Shown: positions 1 through 39,690 of the stretch, piece by piece | Layout of the letters: each line of letters begins with the position of its first letter | How positions within the stretch are numbered: the stretch's first letter is position 1 | Sequence record: KY435490 | Length of the DNA stretch: 44,246 nucleotides | Source: Escherichia phage K1E | Reading direction: 5' to 3' (one strand) | Program-made: the position numbers and the translations under genes | The notes under the pieces: model-generated | Databases searched by the model: none | The model's input: the letters and a program-made list of their open reading frames with translations, nothing else | Told to the model about the DNA's origin: nothing

Positions 1-1651
1 ATACACGATTGTCATTTGCAATCTGCATCTTATAGCAGTATATATCAGTAGGGTGTCCATGACCTTTAAATGGGTCTTTATCTTTGTTGTCACCATAAGT
101 CATTGGGTTGAAATGGTTTTCACCACCAAAGATATAGTAAATGTAGCTGTCTTTAACTACAACAGAACCTACACCTACACTAGAGTTCACAATGTCACCT
201 TGATAGATTTGGTCTGTGATGTTAACCCATTCAATATCATCTGCATTCCAATTGTTTACATTCAATCGTGCATAGAAGGTACGAGGATAAGCTGCCTTGT
301 AACGATCATCTGGTGCACCTGCTTCCCATTCATTTTCTGCACGTTCTGAACCAAACATAATAAGGTCATCTCCTACTTTAGCAAAAGGTAAGGTAGTATG
401 ATGCACATTATGTGGAAATCTTAGTGACTCCCAAGTCTGACCTATATCTCTACTACGATGCAGAGAGCTTCCTAGTCGGTCGCCACGAGTACCACGAGTG
501 ATAAGGTATAATACACCGTCATAGTACTTGATGCATGGCTCTGCCGCATCTGGTTCATACTCAGCTGGTATCTGACGACGAACATAATTAGATGGGCTAT
601 TGAAAGCATCAGGGAAGTAGAAAAGACCAACTTCTCGGGGAGCTACATCACCTTGATGATAGCCCATAACAAAGCCATTGTTATCAATAGTAGCAAAGCT
701 ATGAACTTCAGTAACACGAGGTATCAGGCCAAGATCTGTCTTACGCCATGGAGACTTATGGAAGGAAGTACCCATGTGCCAATTCTTTCCAGCATTGTTC
801 AAATCAGAGGTCTGCTGATTGGCTGTAAGAACCGTGAAGTTGTCCTTATCTATAACTGTTGCAACTTTCATATCACCAGTTACACCTGTTACCGCAGAAT
901 TAGAGAAGCTAACAAAATCGCCCACGAATAATCCGTGATCAGGTACATGGATTGTTGCATAACGCTGATTTGCAGCCTTAGTGATACCACCAGTAAGATG
1001 CAGACTACGAGACATAGGGCGATCCCACAATGCACAATTGGTTAGTGCGTTCTTGGCTAAAGTACGTGTTTCAATCATGGCAAACAGACGGTTGCGACAT
1101 ACACCCATACTCATACAATGATAGTTCACTGTAGGGTAATCTGGATGCAGATCAGTTAACCACTCTGGTGTAGACCATGTTTGACCATCGTCACCAGACT
1201 TAATCCATGATACATGCAGACGACTAACACCATGACGGTCACTACCCATGTAAGGTGCATATATCACGTTCTCATATACAAACGCTTTGTCTTGAGGCCA
1301 AGCATTGTAATAAGGGTTATCCGTGATTTTATAGAGTTCACCATTGATAAAACCTTTACTCACATAGTAAAGAGGTTGACCTGCTAAACGTTCCCATACG
1401 AAGCGGGTATTATAGAATCGCTCCATATCAGGTAAAGATGATACTTTGTAAGTAGCACCAGCACCGTCAATTCTCTTACCTGAAGCCATCGCTGCATTTA
1501 CTGCATCTTGGTCGTTTGTCTTACCATCACCTTTGGCTCCAAAGTCTTTAAGCGATACAACCTCGGTGAGCTTGTCATCCAAGTTACGCCAGATTGCACC
1601 TGCTATTTTACTCTTGAATTTAACTAATGAAGAACCTAGTCTTTGAATCAT
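1..1651 (-). CDS. Endosialidase (endo-N-acetylneuraminidase) tailspike, N-terminal part; the CDS runs off the window start and continues at 43230..44014
   Basis: ATG at 1649-1651 preceded by GGAGG; translation MIQRLGSSLVKFKSKIAGAIWRNLDDKLTEVVSLKDFGAKGDGKTND... recognised from memory as K1E/K1F-type endosialidase; frame is continuous across the duplicated ends with ORF 43230..44204 (811 codons in total). Confidence 0.88.
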   Translation of the reverse strand, partial: MIQRLGSSLVKFKSKIAGAIWRNLDDKLTEVVSLKDFGAKGDGKTNDQDAVNAAMASGKRIDGAGATYKVSSLPDMERFYNTRFVWERLAGQPLYYVSKGFINGELYKITDNPYYNAWPQDKAFVYENVIYAPYMGSDRHGVSRLHVSWIKSGDDGQTWSTPEWLTDLHPDYPTVNYHCMSMGVCRNRLFAMIETRTLAKNALTNCALWDRPMSRSLHLTGGITKAANQRYATIHVPDHGLFVGDFVSFSNSAVTGVTGDMKVATVIDKDNFTVLTANQQTSDLNNAGKNWHMGTSFHKSPWRKTDLGLIPRVTEVHSFATIDNNGFVMGYHQGDVAPREVGLFYFPDAFNSPSNYVRRQIPAEYEPDAAEPCIKYYDGVLYLITRGTRGDRLGSSLHRSRDIGQTWESLRFPHNVHHTTLPFAKVGDDLIMFGSERAENEWEAGAPDDRYKAAYPRTFYARLNVNNWNADDIEWVNITDQIYQGDIVNSSVGVGSVVVKDSYIYYIFGGENHFNPMTYGDNKDKDPFKGHGHPTDIYCYKMQIANDNRV

Positions 1652-1718: not shown

Positions 1719-2054
1719 TTACGCACTGACAATGTGTTTACCTAGAATGTAAACATCTACATCTACGTCTATTTCAACTTGTGCTGTATGGAACACATGT
1801 ACTTCTAATCTAGTATCTGACACTTTAGTAATCCAAGCTGTACAAAGTGTAGGTGTACTTAATGATACAAGTGATGCCCACGAAGAATCTAAATCTCCTG
1901 TTGCAGGTACTTCTATCTCAATTTTAGTATCTTCACTTGGAACTACACCTTCAAATGTAACACGCCTTTTAGATAGTAAATTATCCAATAATGTAGCTAG
2001 TACAGTATCTCTATGTAGTAAGCCAGTTGTCTTGGGTTTAGTTAACTTAGCCAT
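1719..2054 (-). CDS. Small protein (111 aa) immediately upstream of the endosialidase; possibly a remnant or N-terminal fragment of a second tailspike
   Basis: Internal ATG at 2054 preceded by AGGAG (track ORF 1719..2114 starts further upstream without an RBS); phage promoter just upstream at 2139..2156. Confidence 0.5.
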   Translation of the reverse strand: MAKLTKPKTTGLLHRDTVLATLLDNLLSKRRVTFEGVVPSEDTKIEIEVPATGDLDSSWASLVSLSTPTLCTAWITKVSDTRLEVHVFHTAQVEIDVDVDVYILGKHIVSA

Positions 2055-2138
2055 ATACTCTCCTATTACTTCCCAATCCTCCCTATGAAGATTGGCTAGT
2101 AATAGGCCGCTCAAAAGAACGGCACTATCTTATCTCTT

Positions 2139-2720: not shown

Positions 2721-3074
2721 TCAACACAACTTACCATCGCGCACACCCATCTCGTACATCAATGTGAGTGAAGTTTGGTAAGACCCAATGCCATATCTAT
2801 TAGGGTATCGTGCTGTTAGGTAAGACCATACACGATACGGTGTAATACCTTGTACCTTAATATCAGCAGCCTTACCTGTAAGATGCATGGAGTTCTTAGC
2901 TCCACCTACGTTGGCGTTGTGCTTAGCACAGCGATGACCAGAAGTGATAACTACAGGTACGCCAAAATGCTCACGTACATCTGTTACTACCTGTAATAAC
3001 TCAGCATCAACAGTGGATGTACAGCACCCACAACGGCAAGCAAACTCTTTACGCTTGAAGTACTTGTTAAGCAT
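2721..3074 (-). CDS. Endolysin, peptidase M15 family (zinc D-Ala-D-Ala carboxypeptidase / L-Ala-D-Glu peptidase fold)
   Basis: SMHLTGKAAD matches the SxHxxGxAxD signature; internal ATG at 3074 overlaps the upstream stop (TAATAATG). Confidence 0.75.
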   Translation of the reverse strand: MLNKYFKRKEFACRCGCCTSTVDAELLQVVTDVREHFGVPVVITSGHRCAKHNANVGGAKNSMHLTGKAADIKVQGITPYRVWSYLTARYPNRYGIGSYQTSLTLMYEMGVRDGKLC

Positions 3075-3076
3075 TA

Positions 3077-3367
3077 TTAGCCCCCTGCTGGAGTGACAGG
3101 TGCCACCTCCATAGTAGTTGCATCCCACTTGTCAGTTGGTTCACTACCACGTGCAATAGCGATGTACAAGGAGTTGACACCCTTCTCTACAGCAACCATG
3201 GCGCCTTTCTGTTTACCAGATAGGTGTTTAATGTTGATAGGGTGATCTTTCTTCTTAAGGTCTTCTTCAGCAACAATAGGCAGAGGGATTGCCGTTGCAG
3301 TGGTTTGTACAGTTTTTACTCGAAAAGCCTGACCAGTAACAGTACCTGTGTTTCCATATTTAGACAT
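3077..3367 (-). CDS. Hypothetical protein, paralogue B of a tandem pair
   Basis: 96 aa; shares ...SGKQKGAMV...AIA... with the adjacent ORF 3380..3658. Confidence 0.55.
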   Translation of the reverse strand: MSKYGNTGTVTGQAFRVKTVQTTATAIPLPIVAEEDLKKKDHPINIKHLSGKQKGAMVAVEKGVNSLYIAIARGSEPTDKWDATTMEVAPVTPAGG

Positions 3368-5717: not shown

Positions 5718-6016
5718 CAATCCTCCTTAGTAAATTGAATAATCTTACCACTGGATGCCTCTCGGATAGCCTTGAGGCGCTTAGATAACTTGGATTCTTC
5801 CTGCTGTGCAGCAGGTGTAGCAGTGATGCCATTATCCAGTACCCACTTACACATAGCACCAATGTCTTTACCAGAGACTAAATGCAGTGCTGCATCTGGG
5901 TCTTCTTCTATAGTGTCCAGTATTGCCTGTGCTTTCTTATTAAAGATTTTGGTAATAGCACCATGCAGGATGCCAACTTCATCCTCTGTAGCTGCATGTT
6001 TATTGTGTACGCTCAT
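5717..6016 (-). CDS. Terminase small subunit candidate (T7 gp18 position)
   Basis: 99 aa, immediately upstream of and overlapping the terminase large subunit; GGGAGG RBS. Confidence 0.6.
   Translation of the reverse strand: MSVHNKHAATEDEVGILHGAITKIFNKKAQAILDTIEEDPDAALHLVSGKDIGAMCKWVLDNGITATPAAQQEESKLSKRLKAIREASSGKIIQFTKED
5908..5925 (-). promoter_or_regulatory. Promoter-like sequence (CAATACTGGACACTATAG) inside the terminase small subunit gene
   Basis: Core -13..+1 identical to consensus; -17..-15 divergent. Confidence 0.35.
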
Positions 6017-6444
6017 GTACGCCTCCCGTTAATCCAGTACCATACGGTCTTGTGGTCTAGTCCGAAATGCCTACCAATTTTAGGGTAAGACCAACCTTCC
6101 TCCCTTAATCGTTTAGCTTCAGCAACCTTGTTGTCAATGTTTAAACAACCATAATGTGCATGTATTGTATTCTCCTGTTGAGTACACCACTCTAGGTTGT
6201 CTTTATGACAATTAGAAGGGTTGCGATCTTTATGGTTTACTATCTTATAATTGTGAGGATTAGGTACGTGCTTCCATGCTACTAATCTGTGTACTTTATA
6301 AGTTTTAGTCTTACCATCAATTCGCAGAGAAACAGTACGGTAGCCTCTTTCTCTGATAGCTCCTGCCAGCCTCTTACCCTTCTTACTTAATACAAAACCT
6401 TCTTCAGTTATGATGTATCCTGCTCTTTCAACTTCTGAATACAC
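6013..6444 (-). CDS. HNH endonuclease
   Basis: ...KIVNHKDRNPSNCHKDNLEW... HNH motif; GTG start with AGGAG RBS; overlaps the holin 3' end. Confidence 0.8.
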   Translation of the reverse strand: MYSEVERAGYIITEEGFVLSKKGKRLAGAIRERGYRTVSLRIDGKTKTYKVHRLVAWKHVPNPHNYKIVNHKDRNPSNCHKDNLEWCTQQENTIHAHYGCLNIDNKVAEAKRLREEGWSYPKIGRHFGLDHKTVWYWINGRRT

Positions 6445-6632
6445 TTCTCTTTTCTCCTCTGTTTTATAGTTCGGGCCTTCTCGTAGATAAACCAGCCCAT
6501 TTGCATAATAGTGTAAATGAGGGTCATAATTACAAGCCAGTTATCCCAACTGATACCGAGGAAGTACCCACCTGAGACTAATGCAGGTGGCGCAAGCTTC
6601 ACACCACTATCTACCAGTTCGGAGTTAATCAT
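6408..6632 (-). CDS. Holin, T7 gp17.5-like (class II)
   Basis: 74 aa; MINSELVDSGVKLAPPALVSGGYFLGISWDNWLVIMTLIYTIMQMGW resembles T7 holin; AGGAGG RBS. Confidence 0.7.
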   Translation of the reverse strand: MINSELVDSGVKLAPPALVSGGYFLGISWDNWLVIMTLIYTIMQMGWFIYEKARTIKQRRKEKCIQKLKEQDTS

Positions 6633-6641
6633 CTCACCTCC

Positions 6642-7604
6642 TTACACTAGTTGTAGCTTCATACTTACGACACACTCAGGTAATGGCTCACTGAAAGTGA
6701 TAGTAGACCCTACGATTTCATAAGCATTATTAGGTTGATACAGGCCATCCAAGTATACATCAAGACGTTGGAAAGCCGTTACAATGTCGATAGATTGTGT
6801 ACCTTCACTCACTGCTTGTGTAAAGAGGATAGTATCCGCACTTGTAGGTGGGGTTAAGCGACTACCGATAAGCACATAAACTTCATCCCCAGCCTGTAAT
6901 GGCTCGGACAGGGTTATAACATTATACCCCACTGATACTGCACCTGCTAGTTCATGCTGGAATACACCGTTTATAAACACCATAGCATCATCAAATGAGT
7001 AAGGTGGTCGAATGATTTGCTCTCCACCGGAGGCGACCATATACCAAGGAATAGTGCGATGAGATACACCAGACACCATTCCTCTCTTAATACCAGCAAT
7101 CTCTATATCTTGTGCAGAGTTCCAATCAGTATGCTTCTTGTCGATAGCATCTAGCTGTGATTTATTTACTGCATCTTTTGGATTCTCACCATCAGCTAGG
7201 TCAGTAATCTTATTGCCGCCCCAGCTTACATTCTGCTTAATGAAGTATCCTTCTGGATAAAACCCATCAAGTAACTCCTGTGTAATCTCCAGTATATGAA
7301 TGAAAGAGCCATTTAAAGACTTCATATCCAAGGTAACACCACGGTCAAACTCAGCGTATGGATATTCCTTTTGTACTTCCCTTCGAATACGGAACTTCAA
7401 ACCTGCAACAGGTGCTACATCAAAAGTGATTTGATGCGTACCAGTTAATTGCCAGCCAGATGTAACCTCAATCCAAGTGTTACCTTGAAGAGATTCCACT
7501 ATCACATCTGAGGCACGAAGATAGCCTTTATCCCTACCAGCAAAGCTAAAGGGATAGGTTACTTGCGTACCGTTGGCTATATGTTCTGTGAAAGTATAAC
7601 TCAT
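6642..7604 (-). CDS. Tail fiber-like adaptor protein (T7 gp17 N-terminal-like) that docks the tailspikes
   Basis: 320 aa at the gp17 position, too short for a full fibre. Confidence 0.75.
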   Translation of the reverse strand: MSYTFTEHIANGTQVTYPFSFAGRDKGYLRASDVIVESLQGNTWIEVTSGWQLTGTHQITFDVAPVAGLKFRIRREVQKEYPYAEFDRGVTLDMKSLNGSFIHILEITQELLDGFYPEGYFIKQNVSWGGNKITDLADGENPKDAVNKSQLDAIDKKHTDWNSAQDIEIAGIKRGMVSGVSHRTIPWYMVASGGEQIIRPPYSFDDAMVFINGVFQHELAGAVSVGYNVITLSEPLQAGDEVYVLIGSRLTPPTSADTILFTQAVSEGTQSIDIVTAFQRLDVYLDGLYQPNNAYEIVGSTITFSEPLPECVVSMKLQLV

Positions 7605-10600
7605 TAATCCTCCAGTTCATCTAAGCCATAACGCAATGCGTTCTGGATTCCTATTACATTAGCTAGAGGCACTAAGCGTAAAGCCCTACGTGCCACATCT
7701 ACACCTTCTGTATCACCCTCTGCGTATTTAGTTATAGAATCTGCTAAACGATATGCATCTTGACCAACACCTACTAGTGGTATTTGGTCTATCAAACCCT
7801 TAGTCTGAAAGCCAGCCTCATAACGGGATTGTACTAACTCAGAAGGTAGAACACCTAGGCCACCTAAGAAATCTCCACCTAGACTAAATACAGCAGTTGT
7901 ACTCATCATACCCATTGCACCAAAGGCCAACCCTTTAGGCGATAACTTCTCTTCCAAATATTCATCTTGGTCTTCTCGACCAATAGAGTTCACATAGGCT
8001 TTTGCCGCATACACTATTGAACCCAAAGCAAAACCGTAAGCTGTCTTCTTAGCAAGACCAATTTTATCGTGGCGAATCCCTCGACCAAATTGCTTCTCAC
8101 CAGATACAAGAGAGAATGACTTAAGCTGTGCAAATGTCTTACCTAGTGCTTTGTTCATCCAGATACCTTCATCACCAATAAAGTTACGTTGGATAATTAG
8201 ACCTGACTTACGACGAATAGCATTAGCTAAAGTTTCACCCATGGCATAAGGCATTGTATCAAAGCCAAGCAAGCCAGAACCTTTAGAGTTAGCATCATAG
8301 TGCTTCTGTAGGTTAGTCATGAACTCCTGAGTAAGACCAAGTTCCTCCAGTTTCTTCTGAGGAATAATCTTCTTGCCTTCAAGGTGGTCAATGAAAGACA
8401 AAGCTATTTGCCTATTGGTCATTCGCTCCAGAGAACCCTGTGCCATGCGGAAGAGGGATAGGTTTGTCTGAGCACGTCGTATAGAGTTCATGGACTGGTC
8501 AAAATGGGCCATCATACCTCGCACTGTGGTTACATCACCAAACTCATCTGGACGCGCACCCTTAGTTGTTAGCCAGTTGTCTTCACCAATGTAACCTACC
8601 ATTCGCTCAACCTCAGCTAAATTCTTATCTCGAAAGAAGCCATCGCCATTACGCAACGCCTTAGAGGTGAAGCGGAATTGCTTACCTAAAGCCATAGTGG
8701 TGGCAGCAATACCAAACTCACCCATGAAGTTAGCAAGTTCACCTAGCTGTGCGAAGCCCATCTGACCTAAGCGAAGTACGCCTGTAATGTCACGCCCACG
8801 ACGCAGCATTTTAGTAGACAAATCTTGTGGGTTTGAATCGATAGATTTACCCATAATCAAGCGAAGCCCCTCTCGCATCTGACGGATTTCTTCATCAATA
8901 GCCAGACCTGCTGCTTCATCTTTCTCTTTCAATTTAAGTCGCTTCTTTAACTCTTCAATCTTCTCTTGTGCCTTCTTGTAATCAGGCTCTGATTGACGGA
9001 TCTTAGCCGACTCCGCTTCAAATTGTGCGTGTGCTTTTGTATCTTTAGCTGCATTTCGTGCATTTCGCTCTACAAGATCAATTGCATTAAGTGCAGCCTG
9101 ATAGGTAGAGAAACCTTGACGAGCCAAGGCAGCACCACCTGCAGCTTCCTTCATGTAGTTATCTGTTAACTCTTCCACGTTAGTGTTCATAAAGTCACGC
9201 ATACGAATACCATTGTACTCTTGAGTAACATCTAAGCCTAAACTCATCTTAGCTCGGTTAGAGATATTATCTCTGGTTTCTTTATTATCCAGAGCTTCTA
9301 CCATCTTTTCAATCTCTTCATCACTAAAGCCTGCTTTGCGCATGAGTGCTTCATATTCTGCTTTGGTTTGACCAGACATAGCCTTTTCAAAGCTAAGCTG
9401 TCCGGTCAAGGTGGCATCAGCAACGCGGTTTACTTGTGCTCGTGCAATATCATCAGCCACTTCCTTTGGAACCTTACGAGAACCATTCTGGTATGCACGA
9501 GAGAATAACTCAATGATGTCCTCTTTATCGTGCATACTGAATTGACGACGAGCCTTCATACTGTCAAAAATATCAGGCATGTACTTATCATCTGCTTTAA
9601 CCTTTTCAAACCCAGCTTCACCAGAGCGTTGACGTAATGCTAATGCTTCACGATACATAGCTTGCTGCCCCTCTGCTGCCATACGGATAGACTTAGGCGT
9701 AGACTCGTCCATACCGATGCGTACAGCTTCCCATACCTTCTCATTATATTGCTGCACATAGTGAGAGTTAGTATGACCTGCAACCGGGTTGATATTATTC
9801 TCTTTGAGCCATAAATCGAACCCATCGTTGAAACGATTCATATCAGCAGATTTCAGACGGTTCAAGTTAGTATTCTGCATGAGACTAGCAGATGCCTTCT
9901 GCATACCTAAGCCTTGGGGGGACTCAAACAGGCGAGCACCAAGGCCGCGTACACTTGCATCCTGAGAGGAATGTACGACAGTACCAAGGGCAGACAGAGT
10001 TCCGGCCCAGCGGCGAGGGGTCATATCAATTGCATTACCTTCCCGCTGTAGGGTTTTCAGCAAATCTTCACCTTTGCTAGAGACATCAAATGCACCCTCC
10101 GTGAGTACCTCTTCACCCTTAACACGCATCGCACCGATACTATCATCAGCAACAGCACGCACATAGCGGTCCCCTGCGTCTGCACTGCGCACAATGCTCG
10201 CAGCCCTGTCATCCCCTTGCTCACTGAGCTTAGTGGCCCTACCACGCGCTACAGCGCCAATAACGCCACCCATCGCCATACCGGAACCTAGTGCTACCAT
10301 AATGTCATCTAAATCACGAGTCATGTCACCTTGGACCAATACGGATTCAATAGCGGCATTACTCACGCCAGCGGCGATAGCGCCACGCACAGCACGTCCT
10401 ACGAGTCCAACTTTAGCGGCACCACCGGTTGGAATAGAGGCAACCCATCCCACAGGGTCAAGCACAGCAGCGCCAATCGTCGCCACAGAGCCAACCCAGC
10501 CAGCCTGAGCAATGCGCTTATTGCGCTCAAGGTCTTCATCAGCATTCTGAATACGGAAGTTCAATTCATCCTCAGAACGAACACCCTCAGTGATTGTCTG

Positions 10601-10912
10601 CATCATATCCGTACCATATTTGAAACGTAGTGCTTCACGTTGCTCAGGTTGTATCTCAAAGTCTGGTTGAGGTGTGAAATCAGCAGTGGCACGGTCATAC
10701 CACCGCTTGCCTCCGAATGCCAACCACTCATTCTGGAAGGCAGCACCTACAGCACCTAAAATATCAGCGTCAGCTTTAGCTTCAAGAACTTGCTCTTGTA
10801 ACTCATTACGCTGGCGTATCGTAGGAGCCGATACCGGAGCCGCCTCAATAGAAAACGGCTCAGGAGTAGACTGGACATATCCAGCCCAATTAGTCTTAAT
10901 GTCTTGTTCCAT
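7604..10912 (-). CDS. Internal virion (core/ejection) protein, gp16-like
   Basis: 1102 aa; position and size. Confidence 0.8.
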   Translation of the reverse strand: MEQDIKTNWAGYVQSTPEPFSIEAAPVSAPTIRQRNELQEQVLEAKADADILGAVGAAFQNEWLAFGGKRWYDRATADFTPQPDFEIQPEQREALRFKYGTDMMQTITEGVRSEDELNFRIQNADEDLERNKRIAQAGWVGSVATIGAAVLDPVGWVASIPTGGAAKVGLVGRAVRGAIAAGVSNAAIESVLVQGDMTRDLDDIMVALGSGMAMGGVIGAVARGRATKLSEQGDDRAASIVRSADAGDRYVRAVADDSIGAMRVKGEEVLTEGAFDVSSKGEDLLKTLQREGNAIDMTPRRWAGTLSALGTVVHSSQDASVRGLGARLFESPQGLGMQKASASLMQNTNLNRLKSADMNRFNDGFDLWLKENNINPVAGHTNSHYVQQYNEKVWEAVRIGMDESTPKSIRMAAEGQQAMYREALALRQRSGEAGFEKVKADDKYMPDIFDSMKARRQFSMHDKEDIIELFSRAYQNGSRKVPKEVADDIARAQVNRVADATLTGQLSFEKAMSGQTKAEYEALMRKAGFSDEEIEKMVEALDNKETRDNISNRAKMSLGLDVTQEYNGIRMRDFMNTNVEELTDNYMKEAAGGAALARQGFSTYQAALNAIDLVERNARNAAKDTKAHAQFEAESAKIRQSEPDYKKAQEKIEELKKRLKLKEKDEAAGLAIDEEIRQMREGLRLIMGKSIDSNPQDLSTKMLRRGRDITGVLRLGQMGFAQLGELANFMGEFGIAATTMALGKQFRFTSKALRNGDGFFRDKNLAEVERMVGYIGEDNWLTTKGARPDEFGDVTTVRGMMAHFDQSMNSIRRAQTNLSLFRMAQGSLERMTNRQIALSFIDHLEGKKIIPQKKLEELGLTQEFMTNLQKHYDANSKGSGLLGFDTMPYAMGETLANAIRRKSGLIIQRNFIGDEGIWMNKALGKTFAQLKSFSLVSGEKQFGRGIRHDKIGLAKKTAYGFALGSIVYAAKAYVNSIGREDQDEYLEEKLSPKGLAFGAMGMMSTTAVFSLGGDFLGGLGVLPSELVQSRYEAGFQTKGLIDQIPLVGVGQDAYRLADSITKYAEGDTEGVDVARRALRLVPLANVIGIQNALRYGLDELED

Positions 10913-10976: not shown

Positions 10977-13925
10977 CTACAACTTAACTTTACCTACCTT
11001 AGAACCTTTAGCTAACTTGGTAGGTGCAGCCTCATAAACCTGATACCAACCATCCGCGCCAATACGTTTATGAGTCCATGCCGAGACAGAACCTGCTGGC
11101 ATAGGTCCACCAAACCTAACCCACATGGAGCCATCTTCACGAGTCTCCACTTCGGTAATCTTAGGCACACCACCAGCAGATGCCATATTGTATGCCTCAG
11201 CGCGTCGCTTCAGTAGGCCAGGAATACGCTTACCTTCACTTGATGCAGTGCCCAGCATTTCGATAAAGCCTTCCGTAAGCTTACCAGCTTTAAATGCAGC
11301 AAGAGCACGCGGTGAGTTCTGGATTCCACCTTTACCTAAATTGTAGGTTAAATCCATCAAGCCACGTTGCTGTGCAGGATGCATCTGGTCAAACGGAATC
11401 TTCCAGTCACGAGTAGGAGGCACATGCTTCTTAGCATCTTGCTCCATAAGAGCGCGAGCCTTGCTCTCTGTAAGCTGAGACATAGACCCTCGATAGGGAA
11501 CTAGTTCATCACCAATCTTAATATACCCGTTTCGCTTCTCTTCTTCCGTTAAGAAATGACCGTAACCGATAGACTCACCGCGAGCGTCTTTATATGGAGT
11601 AAAGGTTCCAGTTGCCTTATTAAAGCCAACTTTATCTTTATTCTCATCCATAGCTAGCTTGTCATAGAATTGTTGCATATTACCTCGATAGTTAATCTCG
11701 AAGTTAGAAGGCAGATTCTCACCAGAAGCAAAAGCAGAAGACATGAGGAAGTTAGCTAGTCCAAATTTACCAATATCTTTGGCAGTTGGTTTAGCTGGCA
11801 TAGGCTCTTGTGCACCAATATCTGTACGATACGGGTGAACATACTCGCCTTTATCTCGTTCCTCTACTTTCTTCTGATAGGCAGAATCTAGTAGTGAAGT
11901 GGTATCTAAAGAGGTTACAGGGATTACTCCAGAAAGAGGGCGACCTGCTGCACCAGCACGAATCACAAAAGTTCCTTTCTGTTCATTGTAATCAATGTAT
12001 ATATCATCTTTAGTTTCCCACTCTTGAAGCTCCTTCTTCAATTCTGGCATCTGTGTTTCTACATACCTACCAAGCGCCAGAGGTACATCGGTAGGGTTTA
12101 CGCCTTTCCCAACTGACATAAGCATATCAGATGCAGAAGTGTAATCACCTTTAATGAAATAGCCACCGGAAGTCTTTGCATCCTCTGATTGAGTGTAGCG
12201 TTTATTGCCCCAAGTAATTAAAGCCTTCTTGATAGAATCCATGTTACGCATACCGCTAGACCACAACATATTGGCCTTAGCTCGTAACTCTTCTTCCGCA
12301 ATAGCTTTACCTAAGTCTGACACTTCGGTTTTACCATCAAACCAGCCAGCACCAGATACCTCATCCAGTGCATCTCCAATAGCTGAGTTGAACTTCTTGG
12401 TTTCCTTCTCAGTACGAGAGAATTTCTGCTGTGCTTCACGCGCAAACCTTGCAGCCTGCAAAGGTGTCTCTCCCATTTGTAGTGCAGTGTTGTAGTTATC
12501 CATGTAGCCATTAACCGTGTCACCAAAGACACCTCGGCTCTCTTCTGGCAACTGTTCCCACAACTGGCGAATAGTCATCAACTCCTGTGGTTCGCCCTTG
12601 GCAAAGTGCTCAGGCGATAGCATAGATTCCATGGCTTTGATACGAGACTCAAAGGTGTCATCCACTAAGCCTTTGGAGTTCATGAATTGCAGACGCTGCA
12701 CTTCCACTGCACCACGAATAGCTTCAGCCTCTTGACTGTAAGGATCCAAGCCACGTTGTTTGATTTGCTGGTCTGCATAAAGTTGGCTATCCTGTTTGAT
12801 AACATCAATGTAAGCCTTCTTCTCTTTATCAGTCTTACCTTGGAAGCCAGTCAGGCGGTCGGAGTAAAGCTCACGTCGCATATCCTGCATTGCACCTAGC
12901 TCTGCATTTTGCTTAGCCCGTTGGCGCATCAGTGCCTCTAGCTCTGGATTAGAGAAGACATAGTTACCTGTCAGATTATTAATGTGCTGTGCTCGTTCCA
13001 ACAATTCTTCATCAGTTAAATCACCTGCAAGGTATGATTCTTTAACTTCGAAAGACATACGAGTTACATCAGCTACATTATTCCTAGCCCAAACTGCATT
13101 ACCACTAGTGATGGCTGTGATAAGCTGTGGATTCTTAGCATAAACAGAAACACCCTTATCGTCCTTCACATACTTCAGGGCTTCAGCCATGCTAACATCA
13201 CCGCCTTGTGCAAGTGAAATTGCTCGCTGGACTAACTTCTTGTGCATCTGTTCAGGTAGTAATCCTTGAGTAAGACCTTCGCGGATTCGTTCCTGTAAAG
13301 CATAGCCAGAAGCTTCAGGGTCAATATTAGAATCCCAAGTAGAAGCCACTCGCCCGTCAAAGGTATCCTCACGGTCTGCTTGTTCACGGTCAAGTTTATG
13401 CTGGGTCCGTGTAGCCCAAATCTGAGGCTGCTGTTCTTGGAAGACATTAGTGACCATACGCATAGTATCTTTGTCACCTTGCAACTCAGGGTATTGCTGG
13501 AACAGCTTATTCTGCATCTCATTACGAGAGTCAACCATAAGTTGTGTCCACTCGTCATCCGTCCCTTGGAAACGAGTAGCCATGTCTTTCATTCGTGCTG
13601 CTTCATCATTAGCTAGCAGTTGAGCTTTGACAAGCATGTTAGCACGAGCGCCACCACGAGTTGCATCCTCAGAAGGCATTAATCCGTTATATGCCCGTTC
13701 CATTTGAACAACCTTATCTTCCTCAATCTTCTGATTAAGGATACCAGTGGTAACATCAGCCACGCTGCTTGCTGCACGAATAAGATCTTCGATAAATCTA
13801 CTACCGGAGGTAGAAGCCACGCCAGCCTCCACACCTCCCACTTGTTGAGGTGCAAAGGTCATGACATTAGGAGAAGTGGCCTGCACTTGTGGCAGACCTT
13901 GTACTGCTTGTCGCTCAATTGCCAT
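10977..13925 (-). CDS. Internal virion protein, gp15-like, with a C-terminal lysozyme-like domain
   Basis: 982 aa; C-terminal ...FTPYKDARGESIGYGHFL... resembles the Y.D..G..TIG.GH signature of T4/P22 lysozymes (GH24). Confidence 0.8.
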   Translation of the reverse strand: MAIERQAVQGLPQVQATSPNVMTFAPQQVGGVEAGVASTSGSRFIEDLIRAASSVADVTTGILNQKIEEDKVVQMERAYNGLMPSEDATRGGARANMLVKAQLLANDEAARMKDMATRFQGTDDEWTQLMVDSRNEMQNKLFQQYPELQGDKDTMRMVTNVFQEQQPQIWATRTQHKLDREQADREDTFDGRVASTWDSNIDPEASGYALQERIREGLTQGLLPEQMHKKLVQRAISLAQGGDVSMAEALKYVKDDKGVSVYAKNPQLITAITSGNAVWARNNVADVTRMSFEVKESYLAGDLTDEELLERAQHINNLTGNYVFSNPELEALMRQRAKQNAELGAMQDMRRELYSDRLTGFQGKTDKEKKAYIDVIKQDSQLYADQQIKQRGLDPYSQEAEAIRGAVEVQRLQFMNSKGLVDDTFESRIKAMESMLSPEHFAKGEPQELMTIRQLWEQLPEESRGVFGDTVNGYMDNYNTALQMGETPLQAARFAREAQQKFSRTEKETKKFNSAIGDALDEVSGAGWFDGKTEVSDLGKAIAEEELRAKANMLWSSGMRNMDSIKKALITWGNKRYTQSEDAKTSGGYFIKGDYTSASDMLMSVGKGVNPTDVPLALGRYVETQMPELKKELQEWETKDDIYIDYNEQKGTFVIRAGAAGRPLSGVIPVTSLDTTSLLDSAYQKKVEERDKGEYVHPYRTDIGAQEPMPAKPTAKDIGKFGLANFLMSSAFASGENLPSNFEINYRGNMQQFYDKLAMDENKDKVGFNKATGTFTPYKDARGESIGYGHFLTEEEKRNGYIKIGDELVPYRGSMSQLTESKARALMEQDAKKHVPPTRDWKIPFDQMHPAQQRGLMDLTYNLGKGGIQNSPRALAAFKAGKLTEGFIEMLGTASSEGKRIPGLLKRRAEAYNMASAGGVPKITEVETREDGSMWVRFGGPMPAGSVSAWTHKRIGADGWYQVYEAAPTKLAKGSKVGKVKL

Positions 13926-14647
13926 TAAATACCTCTTGTTCCAGATGAATATGTGCGAGAATCAGTTAAGGCTTTACCCAATGCCTTGCCAGACTTACTA
14001 CCAGTTACATAGGCAGATGCCAGACTTGGAATACCTTTAACCAAGGTATTCATAGCAGAAGGCTTCTTAAACTCACGCATCTGCATCTGACCACCACGTT
14101 GGATAGACTTAAGCTGGTTGGTGAAATTAATCTTCTGATTCTCATAGTTATCAATGATAGTACTCTGGTTCCTGCCGCCATCTGCTGCTAAGTCATTAAG
14201 CATAGAGGACACAGAATTACCACCAGTACCAGTAGCCCCAGCAAGTAATGCAACCTGTGCTCGCTGCTGTAGCAGTGAAGCCTGATTACTGATTGCATCT
14301 GCATGATATTGTTTAGCAGCAGAACGTTCTGCGTCTGCCACTGTCTTGTACGCCTCTTGTGTAGCAATAAGCTGCTGCCGCCATTGCTCTTCTTGTGCTT
14401 TCTTCATCGCCTTGGCTTCATCACTTCCACCAAATAGATCACCAATCAAGCCTAACCCTTGAAGGCCAGCACCAAGAAGGCCAGCATTAGAGAAACCAGC
14501 AGTGGAACCACTTAGGAATCCGCCTAGTGAACCTAGCAAACCTCCGCCACCTGCGGCAGCACCTCCAGCAGCGGCTGCTGCACCACTGCCTGCAAACATG
14601 CTACCAATAGAAGACATACCAGCCATAACGGCTGAACCTATAGCCAT
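13925..14647 (-). CDS. Internal virion protein, gp14-like (Gly/Ala-rich)
   Basis: Internal ATG at 14647 overlaps the upstream stop (TAATG); Gly/Ala-rich N-terminus. Confidence 0.7.
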   Translation of the reverse strand: MAIGSAVMAGMSSIGSMFAGSGAAAAAGGAAAGGGGLLGSLGGFLSGSTAGFSNAGLLGAGLQGLGLIGDLFGGSDEAKAMKKAQEEQWRQQLIATQEAYKTVADAERSAAKQYHADAISNQASLLQQRAQVALLAGATGTGGNSVSSMLNDLAADGGRNQSTIIDNYENQKINFTNQLKSIQRGGQMQMREFKKPSAMNTLVKGIPSLASAYVTGSKSGKALGKALTDSRTYSSGTRGI

Positions 14648-17049
14648 TAGACCCTCCTTTTGGTTGGATTGTAACTCCCTTCCCACTCAATATCGCGAAG
14701 CTGGAATGTATGAGGTGATTCTACAATAATACGATAAACAGCATCCGTACTCTTAGCCCTCAGTGGGAATCTGAAGACACCCTCCCTTGGTTCAACATAA
14801 CCTACTGTGTTGTTGAGAGCACCACCTATACGGTTTGACGCTAGCACCCTGCGTACTTTACCACTCTTCACATTCTTAACTTCCACAGAGAAATCAGGAT
14901 ACATATCAAGATTAAGGTGAACCAACCCCACAACAGGTACATCAATATAGGATACACGATCTTGCCTATCTCTGATAACTACAGGTGTAGGTTCAAACTC
15001 TTGAGGGTAAATCTGACCAACAATAACCTTCGCTTTTACGTGGTTATCATCGTGCATGTCAAAGGTTGTAGACAAGGTGTTATCACTAGGGTTATATTTG
15101 AACAGGAAAGAACCTCCAATGTATGAATCCCACCCTTCTATTAAGATGCAATCCAAAAGTTCTGGGTTAGTAGGAGTCCAAGGAAGTGGTTCAGATATCC
15201 ATTCATCTTCTGCTTTAAAATGCTTGAAGATCAACTCTGCTTGCCTATCCATTCTGATGCGGTCATTCAAACCATAGGTTAGTGCATCACCCATGTCCAT
15301 CTTCTCCAGATAGACGCCATCGCCTCGCTCAAGGAGTAGATAAAGTAATTCACCAGAATAAAACATACCTCGCACCTTTGTACCCATAGGCCACTCCCAT
15401 ACATGCCATGCTGATTGTACACGGTCTGTACCTTGCCATAACCAATCATAGCAATAAATTATGTTACGATACTTATCAGTAGTGACAAGCAATCGGTTGA
15501 CATTGGTACTTGCTGCCATGTTGATAATGTTACCTTCGATAAGCTTATTCACATGACTTGTGATTGCTTGTGCCTTCTTAGTGTCACTATAAGAGTCTGT
15601 ATAGAACTCTCGGACACCAGAGTAAGCACCATCGTTAGTGGCAAACATTACCGATTCACCAGTTACTACTGGCTTCACTTTATTGTTCACTTCAAATGTT
15701 GTAACAGGCTTAAGCAGTGCATTTGACTTCTCTAAAGGCTTATCGCCTGGCAGTATGAATTGTGACTTATCAGAGAACAACACGGTAGCGCCATCTAAGG
15801 TCACTGCATGTTTTAGCTGGTAGACTTCACTAGCATCTGAGAAAATATCAAATGGGTCAGTTGCCAATGCAGAGATAACCGTATAACGAAAGAAATCGAA
15901 GAAGTATGATGTACGAGAAGCAATAACCGCTTCACCTGCTGTAAAGCATAGGCGGTTCTGTACCATGAACATCCCACCTATTGTCTGGGGCACTTCCTCA
16001 TCAATAAAAGAGGGCATAGGGTTAGTCAAGTCGTCCCCTACTTTACGATCTTCCCAATCACCTTGTCTTATCTTGAATTGAGCTATGCCGTCAATGATAC
16101 CTGTACGTTCAATGATGTAAGGCATTGTGCCTTTATCAAACCCGAGTAATACATCAGCAGCTATTGTTTCTTTCCAAGACACAAGGTTTCCCTCTTTAGG
16201 CTCAGCTTGCAGCCAGTAACGAGACTCAGGTTTGCTGCCAGTAGGCCACACTTGTACTTTATAACCAGCAGGCGCACGAGAAGGGAGTAGGTCAGTAGAG
16301 CTAACTTTATTCTTGATAGCCACTAAGTCCTTACCTTTTGCACCATCGGTGGTTGTTATTGTAAAGCTAGCACCATCCCGTCTCTCGATAAATATACTAG
16401 TACCGTCTCTTTGTATTTCATAGTCACTCACACCGCTCCATTGCTGCAACTTAGAGTACAATTCAGAAGTGATACGTTCAGTTCGAATTTGTTCAACATG
16501 GTCTGCACTTCCACCATCCGGTGTTTTAAAACTAGCAGCGTTGGTCCCATTAATTACAATGGAATAAGATGTACCATATTGACCATACGCACAAAACACA
16601 ATGGCTTTGTTTCCAACTTTAGGTGACTTCCTATTACTAACTTTAACCACTTTCCTACGGTTAAGCATAAAAGTAACATCAGCTATAGTCATGAATTGCA
16701 CATCTTCCCTAGGGTTAACAACTTCAGAAAGGTAGGTCATAGGTGCATCTTGAGAGATGACATTGCACTTGCGTCCATGCTTATCAAATATCTCTGGCAC
16801 TTGCCCTTTCTTTAAGGTGAAGAAATACTCTTCATCCCCCTCACCCCTGCGATAATGGTGCGTTGCCATATTATCTGTACCTTCATCCAAGAGCTTAGCA
16901 ATGTGAGTTGTACCCATGCGGGATTGAGTCCCATTCACTACATCAGGGACCATGTTCACCATAGTCGTACATTGACCATCAAGACGTACCGCTGGAGGTT
17001 GCTGGCTAATCCCTTGGATTTGCCTCCCTAATGAACCTTGTACTTCCAT
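14647..17049 (-). CDS. Tail tubular protein B (gp12-like)
   Basis: 800 aa; ATG at 17049 overlaps the tail tubular A stop (TAATG). Confidence 0.85.
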   Translation of the reverse strand: MEVQGSLGRQIQGISQQPPAVRLDGQCTTMVNMVPDVVNGTQSRMGTTHIAKLLDEGTDNMATHHYRRGEGDEEYFFTLKKGQVPEIFDKHGRKCNVISQDAPMTYLSEVVNPREDVQFMTIADVTFMLNRRKVVKVSNRKSPKVGNKAIVFCAYGQYGTSYSIVINGTNAASFKTPDGGSADHVEQIRTERITSELYSKLQQWSGVSDYEIQRDGTSIFIERRDGASFTITTTDGAKGKDLVAIKNKVSSTDLLPSRAPAGYKVQVWPTGSKPESRYWLQAEPKEGNLVSWKETIAADVLLGFDKGTMPYIIERTGIIDGIAQFKIRQGDWEDRKVGDDLTNPMPSFIDEEVPQTIGGMFMVQNRLCFTAGEAVIASRTSYFFDFFRYTVISALATDPFDIFSDASEVYQLKHAVTLDGATVLFSDKSQFILPGDKPLEKSNALLKPVTTFEVNNKVKPVVTGESVMFATNDGAYSGVREFYTDSYSDTKKAQAITSHVNKLIEGNIINMAASTNVNRLLVTTDKYRNIIYCYDWLWQGTDRVQSAWHVWEWPMGTKVRGMFYSGELLYLLLERGDGVYLEKMDMGDALTYGLNDRIRMDRQAELIFKHFKAEDEWISEPLPWTPTNPELLDCILIEGWDSYIGGSFLFKYNPSDNTLSTTFDMHDDNHVKAKVIVGQIYPQEFEPTPVVIRDRQDRVSYIDVPVVGLVHLNLDMYPDFSVEVKNVKSGKVRRVLASNRIGGALNNTVGYVEPREGVFRFPLRAKSTDAVYRIIVESPHTFQLRDIEWEGSYNPTKRRV

Positions 17050-27621: not shown

Positions 27622-28428
27622 TTAATATTCCGCGTCCTCATCCATCTCCGGTGCAGGAGTATCTTCTGCTTCAGGTACTTCCTGTGGAACAGACTCACCA
27701 GTATCCAGAGATTTACGATTAGCTGGGGTAGCATCTTCCTCGTCTTTCTTCTTAGCCTTCTTCCATTCAGGGTCTTCTTCACGAGCAGCTTTGATAATAG
27801 CTTCTACGTGAGAGCCAGCAACAGACAGGTTCTTACCACGAGGTGTCTCGTTCAGGAAGTATTGACGTACCAAGTTAGCTGGGATGTCATCAAGGATTTC
27901 TTTGGTCAGCTTGTCGAAGGTGATATGACCTGTCATAGACAGACCTTCCTCTTCTACCTGAGCCAGTACAAGCTTCTTCAACTTATCAGGCATACCGCCA
28001 AAGCCTTTCCAGTTAACATACTTGAAAGTACCATCATCATTCTTGTCGCCAGAGCCAACCATAGTTGCAGTCAGACATTCACCGATAAAATCATCGAAGC
28101 CACCCAGCAACTCTTTAGGGTCAACTGCATTCAGGAACTTAGTCAGTGTTGCCTTATCACCAGACTTCAGAGGCACAGCCATCCATTGTTCCATGCGAGA
28201 ATCATCTTCATTCTTATCGTCGTCGCCCATCAGGATAATCTTAACAAGAACAAAGTTTGCTGGCTTCTTAACTTCAGTGGTATTACCTTTCTTAAAGATA
28301 TCTTGGAAGGAACCAACATGAATGATGCCAGAGATTACTGCTTCATGATCACCAACTTCAGGGTTCTTAAATAATTTACCTTCAGCTTTAGTAACCTGAG
28401 CACCAAAATCAAAATCACCACGTGCCAT
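27622..28428 (-). CDS. Putative ssDNA-binding protein (T7 gp2.5-like role)
   Basis: 268 aa; acidic C-terminal tail ending in an aromatic residue (...DEDAEY); own promoter; assignment is by position and tail, not motif. Confidence 0.5.
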   Translation of the reverse strand: MARGDFDFGAQVTKAEGKLFKNPEVGDHEAVISGIIHVGSFQDIFKKGNTTEVKKPANFVLVKIILMGDDDKNEDDSRMEQWMAVPLKSGDKATLTKFLNAVDPKELLGGFDDFIGECLTATMVGSGDKNDDGTFKYVNWKGFGGMPDKLKKLVLAQVEEEGLSMTGHITFDKLTKEILDDIPANLVRQYFLNETPRGKNLSVAGSHVEAIIKAAREEDPEWKKAKKKDEEDATPANRKSLDTGESVPQEVPEAEDTPAPEMDEDAEY

Positions 28429-28489
28429 TTATTTAGTCTCCTATTGTTACACTACACAATCATAGGCCGAACTAAGCCGACCTATTGTT

Positions 28490-28507
28490 CTATAGTGTCC
28501 AGTAATT
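28490..28507 (-). promoter_or_regulatory. Phage RNAP promoter (AATTACTGGACACTATAG)
   Basis: Consensus match upstream of 27622..28428. Confidence 0.65.
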
Positions 28508-28805
28508 ACTTATGAACTACCTTAATACGTGCAATAGTATCGAGAGGGTAGACATAACTAACACATTCACCATCTTCAACCTCTTGTACATTTACACTAG
28601 CCATAGTGTCACAAAGTGAAAGGCTCAATTGATGACAAGTTTCACCTTGAGTAAACTCTGGACCACGATAGGCATCTGCTTGTTCCACAGTAGTGATTGC
28701 TGTATCGTCTTCTTTAGCCAGACGAGTGTGACCTGCAACTTTACGCTGCTCTAGATCACGAAAGATGATACCTACATGTTTAGCTTGAATCACTTCTTCC
28801 ATCAT
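28506..28805 (-). CDS. Hypothetical protein (99 aa)
   Basis: ORF only. Confidence 0.45.
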   Translation of the reverse strand: MMEEVIQAKHVGIIFRDLEQRKVAGHTRLAKEDDTAITTVEQADAYRGPEFTQGETCHQLSLSLCDTMASVNVQEVEDGECVSYVYPLDTIARIKVVHK

Positions 28806-28810
28806 AACCC

Positions 28811-29188
28811 TTATTTAGTCAAGTTGTCCAGTTCTATTTCCAGCATAACAATCTCTTTCTTCAGGCTGTCAGATGCAGCTTGATTTACAAGAGCAATTGA
28901 TGCCTTGTTCTCTTCAAATTCAGCTTTCAGGCTGTCACGCTCTTGCTGGTGACGTGCCAGCATATCTTCTACCTCTTTGACTTGACGTGCATTTAGTTCA
29001 TCACGAGATGCATAGTAGCGGTTATGGCAGTCAATCATTTGAGAACTACGATGTTCTTCAACTTTAACTTGCTCTGCCTGTACTGCTTCGATGCGAGCCT
29101 CAATAGCTTTGATAGCCTTGGACTTGAACTTATTAGCAAGACCACGAAAGTATTGAGCCACGAATACCAGAGTAGTTACCATAGACAT
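28811..29188 (-). CDS. Hypothetical coiled-coil protein (125 aa)
   Basis: RBS GGAGATATAAAT then ATG. Confidence 0.5.
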   Translation of the reverse strand: MSMVTTLVFVAQYFRGLANKFKSKAIKAIEARIEAVQAEQVKVEEHRSSQMIDCHNRYYASRDELNARQVKEVEDMLARHQQERDSLKAEFEENKASIALVNQAASDSLKKEIVMLEIELDNLTK

Positions 29189-29257
29189 ATTTATATCTCC
29201 TATATTTACTTAATTACCTATACTACCTTATAAACCTAGATTACCTAGGCTTTCCTT

Positions 29258-29275
29258 CTATAGTGTCCAGTAAAT
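29258..29275 (-). promoter_or_regulatory. Phage RNAP promoter (ATTTACTGGACACTATAG)
   Basis: Exact consensus. Confidence 0.7.
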
Positions 29276-29343
29276 CATGTTAGACAAAATAAGTAGGAAT
29301 AAGTTATTCATAAAGGCCACTCGTAAGTGACCTTGAGTATAAC

Positions 29344-29442
29344 TCAGTCGTAGTTACCATCACAATCTGGGTCAATGCCAGAGAAAGCCCAGAATACTAC
29401 CATAAATAATATGATCCCAAGAATGATAAAAGCAGTTTGCAT
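29344..29442 (-). CDS. Small hydrophobic peptide (32 aa)
   Basis: MQTAFIILGIILFMVVFWAFSGIDPDCDGNYD; GAGGAGGG RBS; start overlaps the upstream stop. Confidence 0.3.
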   Translation of the reverse strand: MQTAFIILGIILFMVVFWAFSGIDPDCDGNYD

Positions 29443-29558
29443 CAATCGTAACCCTCCTCTTCATCAGGTATATCTAATCGCATACTTCCATAGCAAGCAA
29501 GCATAAGGAATATAAGAAAGAAGATAGAGAATAGGCAAACAACATCAAACCTGTCCAT
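29442..29558 (-). CDS. Small hydrophobic peptide (38 aa) immediately after the DNA polymerase
   Basis: MDRFDVVCLFSIFFLIFLMLACYGSMRLDIPDEEEGYD; start overlaps the polymerase stop (TGATG). Confidence 0.3.
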   Translation of the reverse strand: MDRFDVVCLFSIFFLIFLMLACYGSMRLDIPDEEEGYD

Positions 29559-36051: not shown

Positions 36052-38679
36052 TTATGCGAAACAATAGTCTGAAACTAAGATTTCGTTAAGGTCAAACTCT
36101 CCTTGCTCTGGTACTTGGATTCCGGTGTCTACTAACCAACGCTCTTCGTGCACATCTAGCAGGTTTTGCAGGGCATTATGGTTTTGATACATCTTAACCA
36201 TTTCTTCCCTTAAGCTATCCCGCAGGTCTGCGGTACGTCCTGCATGAGTACCGAAAGAATCATGGATGACTGCAATGGATGTAATACCTTTATCCACTAG
36301 GTCACATACAGTCAGAATCAGGTGGCTAGCATCGTGACCATGGACGAAGTTAGGAGCAGCCGCACCCATCATTGCCGTTTCATCAACTACATCTGTTTCA
36401 ATCTGGAGACTCATCTTGATTTCACCCATCAAGCAAGTGGATACGCGGAGCATATCGGTAGCCATTATCTTTTGTTGCAAGATGAAGCCAGTTGGTAAGG
36501 GATATTCTAAGCCTTCGTTTCTTTTAGCTGCGAAACGTGCAAGCTGACGAATCATTTTCATTGCCACTATAGGAGCTTTAACCACTTCCGAAATAGAAGG
36601 CCAGATTAAAGCTGTCATATAGTTATAAGCTGCGCTAGGTGTCAGGCTATCTTTGCGGTCATTATCAAAAGGATGTACAGGATTGGCGGTACGCCCTTCC
36701 GCAATAGCCCGTTGGGCCTCTTTTTCTTCCAAATCAACGATATAATCAATCACTGACTCACGGCAGGTTAGACGTGTGCTGCCGTAAGGTAGTGTCATTA
36801 CGGGCTTTTTGGTCAGGCCGCGAGTGATTCCTATCATATCCCACGCACTAGCCATGCTACGCAGTTCCGCACCTGTTAAAGTCACGCTGCCAGAAGTGAA
36901 GGTTTCCGCATCCTCTGCATTCATGTATGCATAATTCTTCTGAATTACTACCTGCGCAACGGCACCATAAATATCTTGAGGGGAGTCAGAGGGCTTAAGG
37001 TTTACCGCTTTCGCACCTACTGCATCGCGTAGCATAGCACTGTAGTGCTGGATACCAGAACAACTACCATCTTGATGGACTGGGAGGTGCGTCATGAATT
37101 GGTCTTGCGTGCCTTCATCCAGTGCATCCAGATAACGCGCATATTCAAAGCACCATGCAAGGAAGCCGTAAGGGGAGTCGGCATTTACCCATTGAGTGAA
37201 GGTCAGCGGATCCGCTGCAATGTCGCGGCACATGTCTTGAAATTCACTATCCAGCACGTTAGCGGTGCGCACGTCAAAAGTTTTCTTATCCCAACCCCAG
37301 TTATTAGCCCCGTTCACCAAAAACCACTTAAGCGCCTCAGCGCTATCAAGACGCTGCCCTTCGGTAAAACGGAGCAATGCCTTGCCTAAGTCGTTTGATT
37401 GCGGAGAGAGCGTGCTAGATTGCGCGTAGACGCGGCTGCGGCTGTCCAGAGCATACACGAAGTATATTGCGTCAAATTGGCTGTATTTACGGGCCTGCCC
37501 TACCATGCGGACGGTCGCCGCCGATTTGCTGCCGCGCTTAGTCTCAGCGGTATACAGCTTGGTGCATTCACCTTTCCAGTTGATGAAGGCTTGCCATTGT
37601 TCCGGTGTTAACATTTCTTTCAGTTCACGGCCTCGCAGGTGCTGGAACTCTAACGGCACCGGATTAGCTGGCTTGTTCTCGCGGTCGATGAGTGGTTTGA
37701 AGGAAGGTACGCCATAGCCTAAATCAAGCCGTATTACGTCCTCAACAACCTGTAAAACTTCCTTGTTAACCTGCCATTTAGTCGCCTGCAAAGCGTTAAC
37801 AGCCTTGTAAACCGCTGGCATTTGCTTTTTGGTCAGCTTGCGGACGTGTTCACGGCTGCCTTTAACAAGACGCACACGACTTGCTACCTTCTCAGTGTGA
37901 AAACCGCCATTAAAAGGAGAAACCCACGGACGCGGAGGTATAACGCAAGGTGCATAAGCCGGGCTAAGTTGCGCTACATGTTCTTTAAATGCTGTAATCC
38001 ATTCCCCTACGTGTTCACTGGTCTGTAAGTAGTAAACGCCATGCTTGCCACCATTAGTGCGCAAGGTGCGAAGAAAGACAGGCTGACCATTGAAGAATAC
38101 ACTATTTTCCAGTATTTCTAGCAAGGTCATACCGATTTGTAGCAAGGTATCTTTAGGCCATGCCTCCCAACGGGAGAAATCCGCGTCACGGTCAGCAACA
38201 GATTTCTCAGCTACTACCGCTACGTTGTGCGCATGACGATAAGATTTAGTCTTGCTAGCCTTAAGCGACTTCTTCACTTTCTCAAAGTACTTAGCTGCGT
38301 GACCTTCCAGCTTGCTAAAACGTACTTGGTCTTCGATGCGGTCCGCTACATTCATAGCGATTGCTTGTAAGGTAACGTCTGTATTCAGCATATCCATAAC
38401 GATTTTCATCGTGATATATGCTGCCACTTCGTTTTCTACGCAGTTAATGAAAGCTAATGCACGCGGTGCACGACCTCTTTTACCTTCATACTCTTCCTTG
38501 TATGCCTGAATACCTTCAGCCATTGGCGCGATTAACTCGGACAATAAGCGGCGATTCCATGCCGTGTCTGATTCATTACCGGATGCAATCTGGCGTTGTT
38601 GGTCCGCTTCAAAGCGACGGATACCGCCGTTAAACATTTCTTCTTCAAGTTGAAGTTGAATAGCGTGTAGGTCTTGCAT
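36052..38679 (-). CDS. DNA-directed RNA polymerase, single-subunit, SP6-type
   Basis: 875 aa; [32 protein letters not shown]... closely resembles SP6 RNAP; motifs [40 protein letters not shown]; C-terminus ...DYCFA. Confidence 0.97.
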
Positions 38680-38742
38680 CTTGTTTACTCCTAGTGAAAG
38701 AAACCTTAATAGGTGACACCTAAGAAGATGCCACCGATAAGG

Positions 38743-39627: not shown

Positions 39628-39690
39628 AGTAATCACCTTATATAGTGTAAGTAAATATCACATAGCCCACTCAGGTAGGCTATAGGCTAG

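Follow-up and report, generated by a model that had tools for sequence, protein, structure and literature searches.

In the group of phages to which Escherichia phages K1-5 and K1E belong, ejection proteins are packaged in the capsid core and are expelled through the tail at infection. One of these proteins, gp35, was analyzed here in a sequence of 44,246 nucleotides from Escherichia phage K1E (record KY435490), referred to below as the window, in which a lysozyme-like domain at the C-terminus of an internal virion protein had been predicted from the sequence (the original prediction). In K1-5 and K1E, gp35 is described as a gp15-like ejection protein carrying lysozyme activity, and the gp15 homologues of the SP6 type have been grouped apart from T7 (PMC8954989). 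A review table, which refers to Moak & Molineux 2004 for both proteins, lists the K1-5 protein (YP_654136.1) among the virion-associated lysozymes, with a size of 109 kDa, and SP6 gp36 among the internal head proteins that have lysozyme activity; the asterisk that marks 'experimentally confirmed' chemistry in this table was given to neither of them (PMC5380687).

In gp36 of phiKMV and gp42 of Ar-KM the lysozyme is likewise located on the C-terminal part of the protein in the gp15 position, and the C-terminal lysozyme domain of phiKMV gp36 (gp36C) is thermostable and has been shown by experiment to be active. Cryo-electron microscopy of the phiKMV-like phage Ar-KM showed the lysozyme domain (amino acids 740-881) on the gp15-like tunnel protein, and the C-terminal lysozyme arrangement was present in 31 of the 127 genomes with an identifiable lysozyme or transglycosylase domain among 205 Autographivirales genomes analyzed (bioRxiv 10.64898/2026.05.18.726046). 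Although the SLT domain of T7 gp16 has the same proposed role, that of an ejectosome module opening the peptidoglycan at genome entry (PMC2680503), it belongs to a different fold family (lytic transglycosylase) and is located on a different subunit, at the N-terminus. T4 lysozyme (gpe), P22 gp19 and DLP12 RrrD are free endolysins of about 150-165 amino acids with an E-G signature and a spacing of 9 residues between Glu and Asp. In contrast to these canonical GH24 enzymes, the domain of gp35 is fused to an N-terminal region of about 745 amino acids, and it exhibits E-N instead of E-G, a 19-residue spacing, an extra hairpin and an added beta domain.

The C-terminal region of gp35 is read here, with a probability of about 0.82, as the muralytic module of the ejection protein that occupies the gp15 position in a K1-5/K1E-like Vectrevirus, with a machinery resembling that of T4 lysozyme.

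Identity of the gene and fold of the lysozyme domain

The open reading frame of 982 amino acids (Table 1) was 99.0% identical at the nucleotide level, over its full length, to positions 28049..30997 of K1-5. The counterpart there is gene 35, annotated in RefSeq as "lysozyme domain-containing protein", which also encodes 982 amino acids and has the same neighbours. K1-5 gp35 and K1E gp35 are the same gene as the one in the window, with strain-level substitutions only. Altogether 64 phage records matched the reading frame at 99.0-99.5% DNA identity, and phrog_4290 matched the protein from end to end. The C-terminal 242 amino acids were found by tblastn in 167 phage records, including phages of Klebsiella, Proteus, Erwinia and Pectobacterium, and the annotation was often already that of a lysozyme-domain protein. 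SP6 gp36 (NP_853596.1), which was among them, has the same architecture and position, but it is more diverged (61.7% identity in this part) and comes from a different genus and host. A word-indexed search with the C-terminal 262 amino acids gave 3 matches only; the set of homologues was obtained with the full-length query and an exhaustive HMMER search. The hidden Markov model alignment of these homologues comprised 180 proteins in 182 aligned rows.

The lysozyme-like signature on which the original prediction was based proved to be real. The Pfam family PF00959 (Phage_lysozyme) matched amino acids 776-910 with an E value of 2.2e-10 and 41.4 bits, compared with a cut-off of 22.3 bits, and covered profile positions 9-124 of 125. 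The same family was assigned to 25 of 29 full-length homologues in precomputed assignments. T4 lysozyme chains were the only sequence relatives in the PDB, with E values of 5e-4 for the single sequence (phmmer) and 4e-7 with the family profile.

A structure of amino acids 716-982, predicted from an alignment of 18 C-terminal fragments, had a mean predicted local distance difference test score (pLDDT) of 87.3 and a predicted template modelling score of 0.82. The top Foldseek matches of this model were all T4 lysozyme or GH24 proteins, aligned over 170-185 columns, and the predicted domain has the two-lobed alpha+beta fold of the T4 lysozyme type. By this model the fold of the domain is that of GH24, which is the result that structure prediction had been expected to give if the domain was a lysozyme. 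In the AlphaFold2 model of the full-length protein amino acids 1-91 are disordered and amino acids 92 to about 700 mostly helical, followed by the lysozyme domain and then by a beta domain. The original prediction had placed the lysozyme at 11130..11660 (amino acids 756-932). This span contains most of the domain, but the predicted fold begins slightly earlier, at about amino acid 746 (position 11690), and, contrary to what had been assumed, the lysozyme is followed by another part of the protein, the separate beta domain (amino acids 919-982, approximately).

Proposed active-site motif and probable chemistry

The motif PYKDARGESIGYGH (Table 1) carries the residues that could be aligned with T4 lysozyme. 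HMMER paired YKD..G-SIGYGH with Y18-K19-D20..T26-I-G-I-G-H31 of T4 lysozyme, and G787-Y-G-H790 aligned to G28-I-G-H31. Thus, the profile alignment that had been proposed for locating the catalytic residues placed D780 and S785, but it did not reach the Glu. D780 was retained in 29 of 31 full-length family members. S or T was present at position 785 in 130 of the 169 rows covering this column, and D or E stood 7 residues before the glycine of GxGH in 70 of 87 sequences of the type in which the catalytic Glu column is followed by Asn (EN-type).

A protein of this fold is not necessarily a hydrolase; lambda R is a lytic transglycosylase despite its lysozyme-like fold. If the same applied to gp35, the same bond would be cut with formation of 1,6-anhydro-MurNAc, which we consider improbable. 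The second carboxylate, the equivalent of Thr26 and the G-x-G-H of GH24 are all present here, and we infer hydrolase rather than transglycosylase chemistry.

Position in the operon and proposed role in genome entry

The gene order is gp14-like protein, 982-amino-acid protein, gp16-like protein, because the PF24072 match fixes the upstream neighbour (Table 1). The same order is found in K1-5 and T7, and gp35 thus lies in the gp15 position between the gp14-like and the gp16-like protein, in the internal-virion-protein operon downstream of the tail tube genes. The designation "gp15-like" in the original prediction therefore holds for gene order but not for sequence: hhalign with the profile of the 31-sequence family gave no support for homology to T7 gp15 (probability 0.13%, E=0.45), nor was a match in fold to this protein seen. 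A Pfam search found no transglycosylase domain in the 1102-amino-acid protein downstream, while T7 gp16 gave SLT with an E value of 1.7e-31. As the 1102-amino-acid protein has no SLT domain, the muralytic module sits on the protein in the gp15 position.

The role of a virion-borne peptidoglycan hydrolase used during DNA ejection, as originally proposed, is supported by the literature on K1-5 and K1E gp35 (PMC5380687, PMC8954989). In the mechanism envisaged, the helical N-terminal part of about 700 amino acids would build a tunnel spanning the periplasm. The GH24 domain (amino acids 746-918, approximately) would locally hydrolyze the beta-1,4 bond between N-acetylmuramic acid (MurNAc) and N-acetylglucosamine (GlcNAc) of the peptidoglycan (MurNAc-beta-1,4-GlcNAc), which would let the channel reach the inner membrane. 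Glu761, at the C-terminal end of the first helix, would act as the general acid and Asp780 as the second carboxylate, and Ser785 would take the place of Thr26.

Slightly less probable still than transglycosylase chemistry is a main or additional function of the domain as the endolysin that lyses the host when infection ends, in which case one gene would do two jobs. According to an older paper, entry and lysis in SP6 are both served by a single muralytic gene (PMC2680503). In gp35 an in-frame ATG (M750, 11674..11676, minus strand) is located at the start of the lysozyme domain with GAGG upstream at a short spacing, and a start at this codon could in principle yield a free 26-kDa enzyme. However, conservation of M750 is limited to the closest relatives, and the four bases GAGG are a weak signal. 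The window also has its own endolysin of the Peptidase_M15_3 family and a T7-type holin, and the annotation of K1-5 lists an endolysin, holins and an Rz-like spanin. Such a dedicated lysis cassette elsewhere in the genome fits a role of the gp35 domain in entry rather than in lysis. With the M15 endolysin, the phage would possess a peptidase that serves lysis and, unrelated to it, the virion-borne gp35 lysozyme as a second activity cleaving peptidoglycan; for the lysozyme an entry-only role is favoured.

The ATG of M750 is preceded by GAGGTAAT, which is similar to the context of the gene's own start, GAGGTATTTA-ATG. As only close relatives share the Met, this likeness is probably due to chance, and the internal start was rejected for the same reason.

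The probable catalytic glutamate and the predicted hairpin insertion

The catalytic Glu of gp35 is most probably E761, as judged from conservation and from the predicted structure. E761-N762 was invariant in all 31 full-length family members, which share 38-98% identity. Among 102 more distant rows covering the column, 99 had E at the position of E761, and N came next in 98. Both models place E761 in the final turn of the predicted helix with which the lysozyme fold begins (amino acids 746-762); in T4 lysozyme, E11 likewise follows helix A.

E761 and D780 are 19 residues apart, compared with 9 in canonical GH24. From the Glu to the first Gly of GxGH the distance is 26 residues in gp35 and 26-33 in EN-type homologues, compared with 17 in canonical EG-type GH24. 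The additional residues lie in the linker NKDKVGFNKATGTFT. N762-T776 is predicted to form a small hairpin extending the first strand, with bridge residues at 768-769 and 774-775 according to DSSP of the models. All family members had G767 and nearly all had G773, and the signature here is 'E-N...G-F-[DN]' rather than the canonical 'E-G'.

The original prediction had noted that the catalytic Glu could not be placed upstream of the Asp by eye. This difficulty is real, since every sequence or profile alignment starts at residues 15-17 of T4 lysozyme. No sequence-based alignment begins before the beta-hairpin, which made the Glu hard to place, and standard profiles miss E761 because of the insertion between the Glu and Tyr-x-Asp780.

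Several findings weigh against the reading given here. The virion location and the muralytic activity of gp35 rest on reviews, that is, on secondary sources. None of the alignments extends to the Glu, as they start at position 9 of the Pfam profile, at residue 16-17 of T4 lysozyme with HMMER and at residue 15 with hhalign. An hhalign comparison of a broader EN-type profile with an EG-type profile at mact 0.05 did span residues 2-162 of T4 lysozyme. However, this forced alignment left a gap of 5 residues after D760 and paired E11-G12 of T4 lysozyme with V766-G767 instead of E761. V766-G767 was rejected as the position of E11-G12, the pairing being judged a glycine-driven artefact. Because no alignment pairs E761 with E11, the assignment of E761 rests on conservation and predicted secondary structure.

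Least likely of all is that another residue such as E743 or E784 is the catalytic Glu, or that the domain has degenerated into a structural or binding module without catalysis. In favour of this, profile alignments never put E761 on E11 of T4 lysozyme, and E743, too, does not vary among close family members. However, just 42 of the 182 homologue rows cover E743, which is located ahead of the first helix in a segment of lower confidence, and E784 is replaced by Q, H, Y, F or D in other members. E761 is the sole acidic residue upstream of the hairpin that is conserved across the whole EN-type clade, and muralytic activity is reported by reviews for gp35 and for phiKMV gp36C.

C-terminal beta domain and relation to other GH24 lysozymes

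The beta domain behind the lysozyme is predicted to consist of strands at 923-928, 934-938, 960-964 and 978-981 and a short helix, with pLDDT values mostly above 85. Its conserved signature comprises I923, D931-G-S-M934, F938, I955, G959-W960 and V963. Pfam and NCBIfam scans of this domain gave no match. Of the 182 aligned rows of homologues, 59 contained the domain, and the Glu column was covered in 50 of these 59, all of which were EN-type. A function in cell-wall binding or in docking to the ejectosome is conceivable.

Homologues of about 900 amino acids, which were taken as phiKMV-like, are without this beta domain. They share the signature E-N...G-F-D...GxGH, but their distance from Glu to GxGH is 28 residues, compared with 26 here, and their second acid is the Glu in 'S-L-E-G-G'. 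phiKMV gp36C probably belongs to the EN-type clade as well. A search of the PDB with a 43-amino-acid consensus segment found no solved structure with the EN-type N-terminal signature, only chance matches.

We tentatively suggest, as a possibility that is less likely than not, that the lysozymes described here and many related ejection proteins form a distinct 'E-N' subclade of GH24 with a hairpin insertion of 10-16 residues between Glu and Asp. The SP6/K1-5 branch and some short proteins of 330-440 amino acids would also carry the beta domain of about 60 amino acids (I..DGSM..F...I...GW..V), which could be a module, not described before, that binds peptidoglycan or docks in the ejectosome and holds the enzyme at the height of the cell wall. 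No description of the subclade signature or of the beta domain was found in the literature searched.

At the other end of gp35, amino acids 1-91 (window 13653..13925, minus strand) are predicted to be disordered, with pLDDT values of 25-42. Despite this, M1-A-I-x-R-Q-x-V-Q-G-L at the N-terminus is nearly invariant across the family, possibly as a segment conserved for interaction or packaging.

Table 1. Location in the window of gp35, of its domains and proposed active-site residues, and of neighbouring and lysis genes
Feature	Position	Strand	Basis or remark
Internal virion (ejection) protein gene, 982 amino acids	10977..13925	minus	Equivalent of K1-5/K1E gp35 and SP6 gp36
GH24 (T4/P22-type) lysozyme domain	11172..11690	minus	Amino acids ~746-918, predicted fold
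Glu761 codon, proposed catalytic general acid, equivalent of T4 lysozyme Glu11	11643..11645	minus	Conservation and predicted helix position
Linker NKDKVGFNKATGTFT, amino acids 762-776, predicted extra beta-hairpin	11598..11642	minus	10 residues longer, between Glu and Tyr-x-Asp strand
Motif PYKDARGESIGYGH, amino acids 777-790	11556..11597	minus	Contains D780 and S785
D780, equivalent of T4 lysozyme Asp20	11586..11588	minus	HMMER alignment
S785, equivalent of T4 lysozyme Thr26	11571..11573	minus	HMMER alignment
C-terminal beta domain of ~64 amino acids, 919-982	10980..11171	minus	Predicted fold and conserved signature
gp14-like internal virion protein, 253 amino acids, upstream neighbour	13925..14686	minus	Pfam PF24072 T7_gp14, E=2.9e-32
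gp16-position internal virion protein, 1102 amino acids, downstream neighbour	7604..10912	minus	No significant Pfam domain
Endolysin, Peptidase_M15_3 family	2721..3128	minus	E=1.3e-28; phrog_894 endolysin; corresponds to K1-5 'endolysin' 38346..38690
T7-type holin	6408..6632		Lysis cassette away from gp35

Genome setting

The window is an almost complete genome of a K1-5/K1E-like Vectrevirus (Autographiviridae, Molineuxvirinae) in reverse orientation. A plus-strand open reading frame of 73 amino acids (11125..11346) is antisense to the strongly conserved coding region of gp35 and was treated as spurious.

The window differs from the K1-5 genome in its tailspike region, which is like that of K1E, and in an HNH insertion. 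The C-terminal part of the endosialidase tailspike is encoded at 43230..44204 (minus strand) and matched the Pfam families End_tail_spike, End_beta_propel and Peptidase_S74. The N-terminal part runs off the window at 1..~1728 and is 96.8% identical to K1-5 gp47. An exact duplicate of 232 bp is present at both ends (1..232 and 44015..44246). The assembly is circularly permuted, and its break falls within the gene of the endosialidase tailspike. The window lacks the gene for the K5-lyase tailspike, which K1-5 carries at about 39386..41274; this gene is replaced by about 300 bp (1728..2035), and a 131-amino-acid reading frame at 1719..2114 (minus strand) matched phrog_15083. The tailspike region resembles the arrangement of K1E, with a truncated second tailspike, rather than that of K1-5.

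An HNH endonuclease of 143 amino acids with a C-terminal HTH is encoded at 6013..6444 on the minus strand (Pfam HNH_3, 7e-9; HTH_23, 1.3e-5; phrog_59). The gene sits between the holin and the small terminase genes, and the stretch 6015..6537 had no match in K1-5. It is probably a mobile homing-endonuclease insertion.

Significance

The gp35 protein, its lysozyme domain and its virion-borne muralytic role in SP6/K1-5-type phages are already known, with literature since 2004 and an annotation in RefSeq. The analysis therefore carries little weight as a discovery, and its added value is modest and practical. It adds the assignment of E761, the E-N and hairpin signature of a possible GH24 subclade, and attention to the conserved C-terminal beta domain. 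E761, the E-N signature and the beta domain may help in the engineering of virion-associated lysins or in reading cryo-electron microscopy maps of the ejectosomes of Molineuxvirinae.

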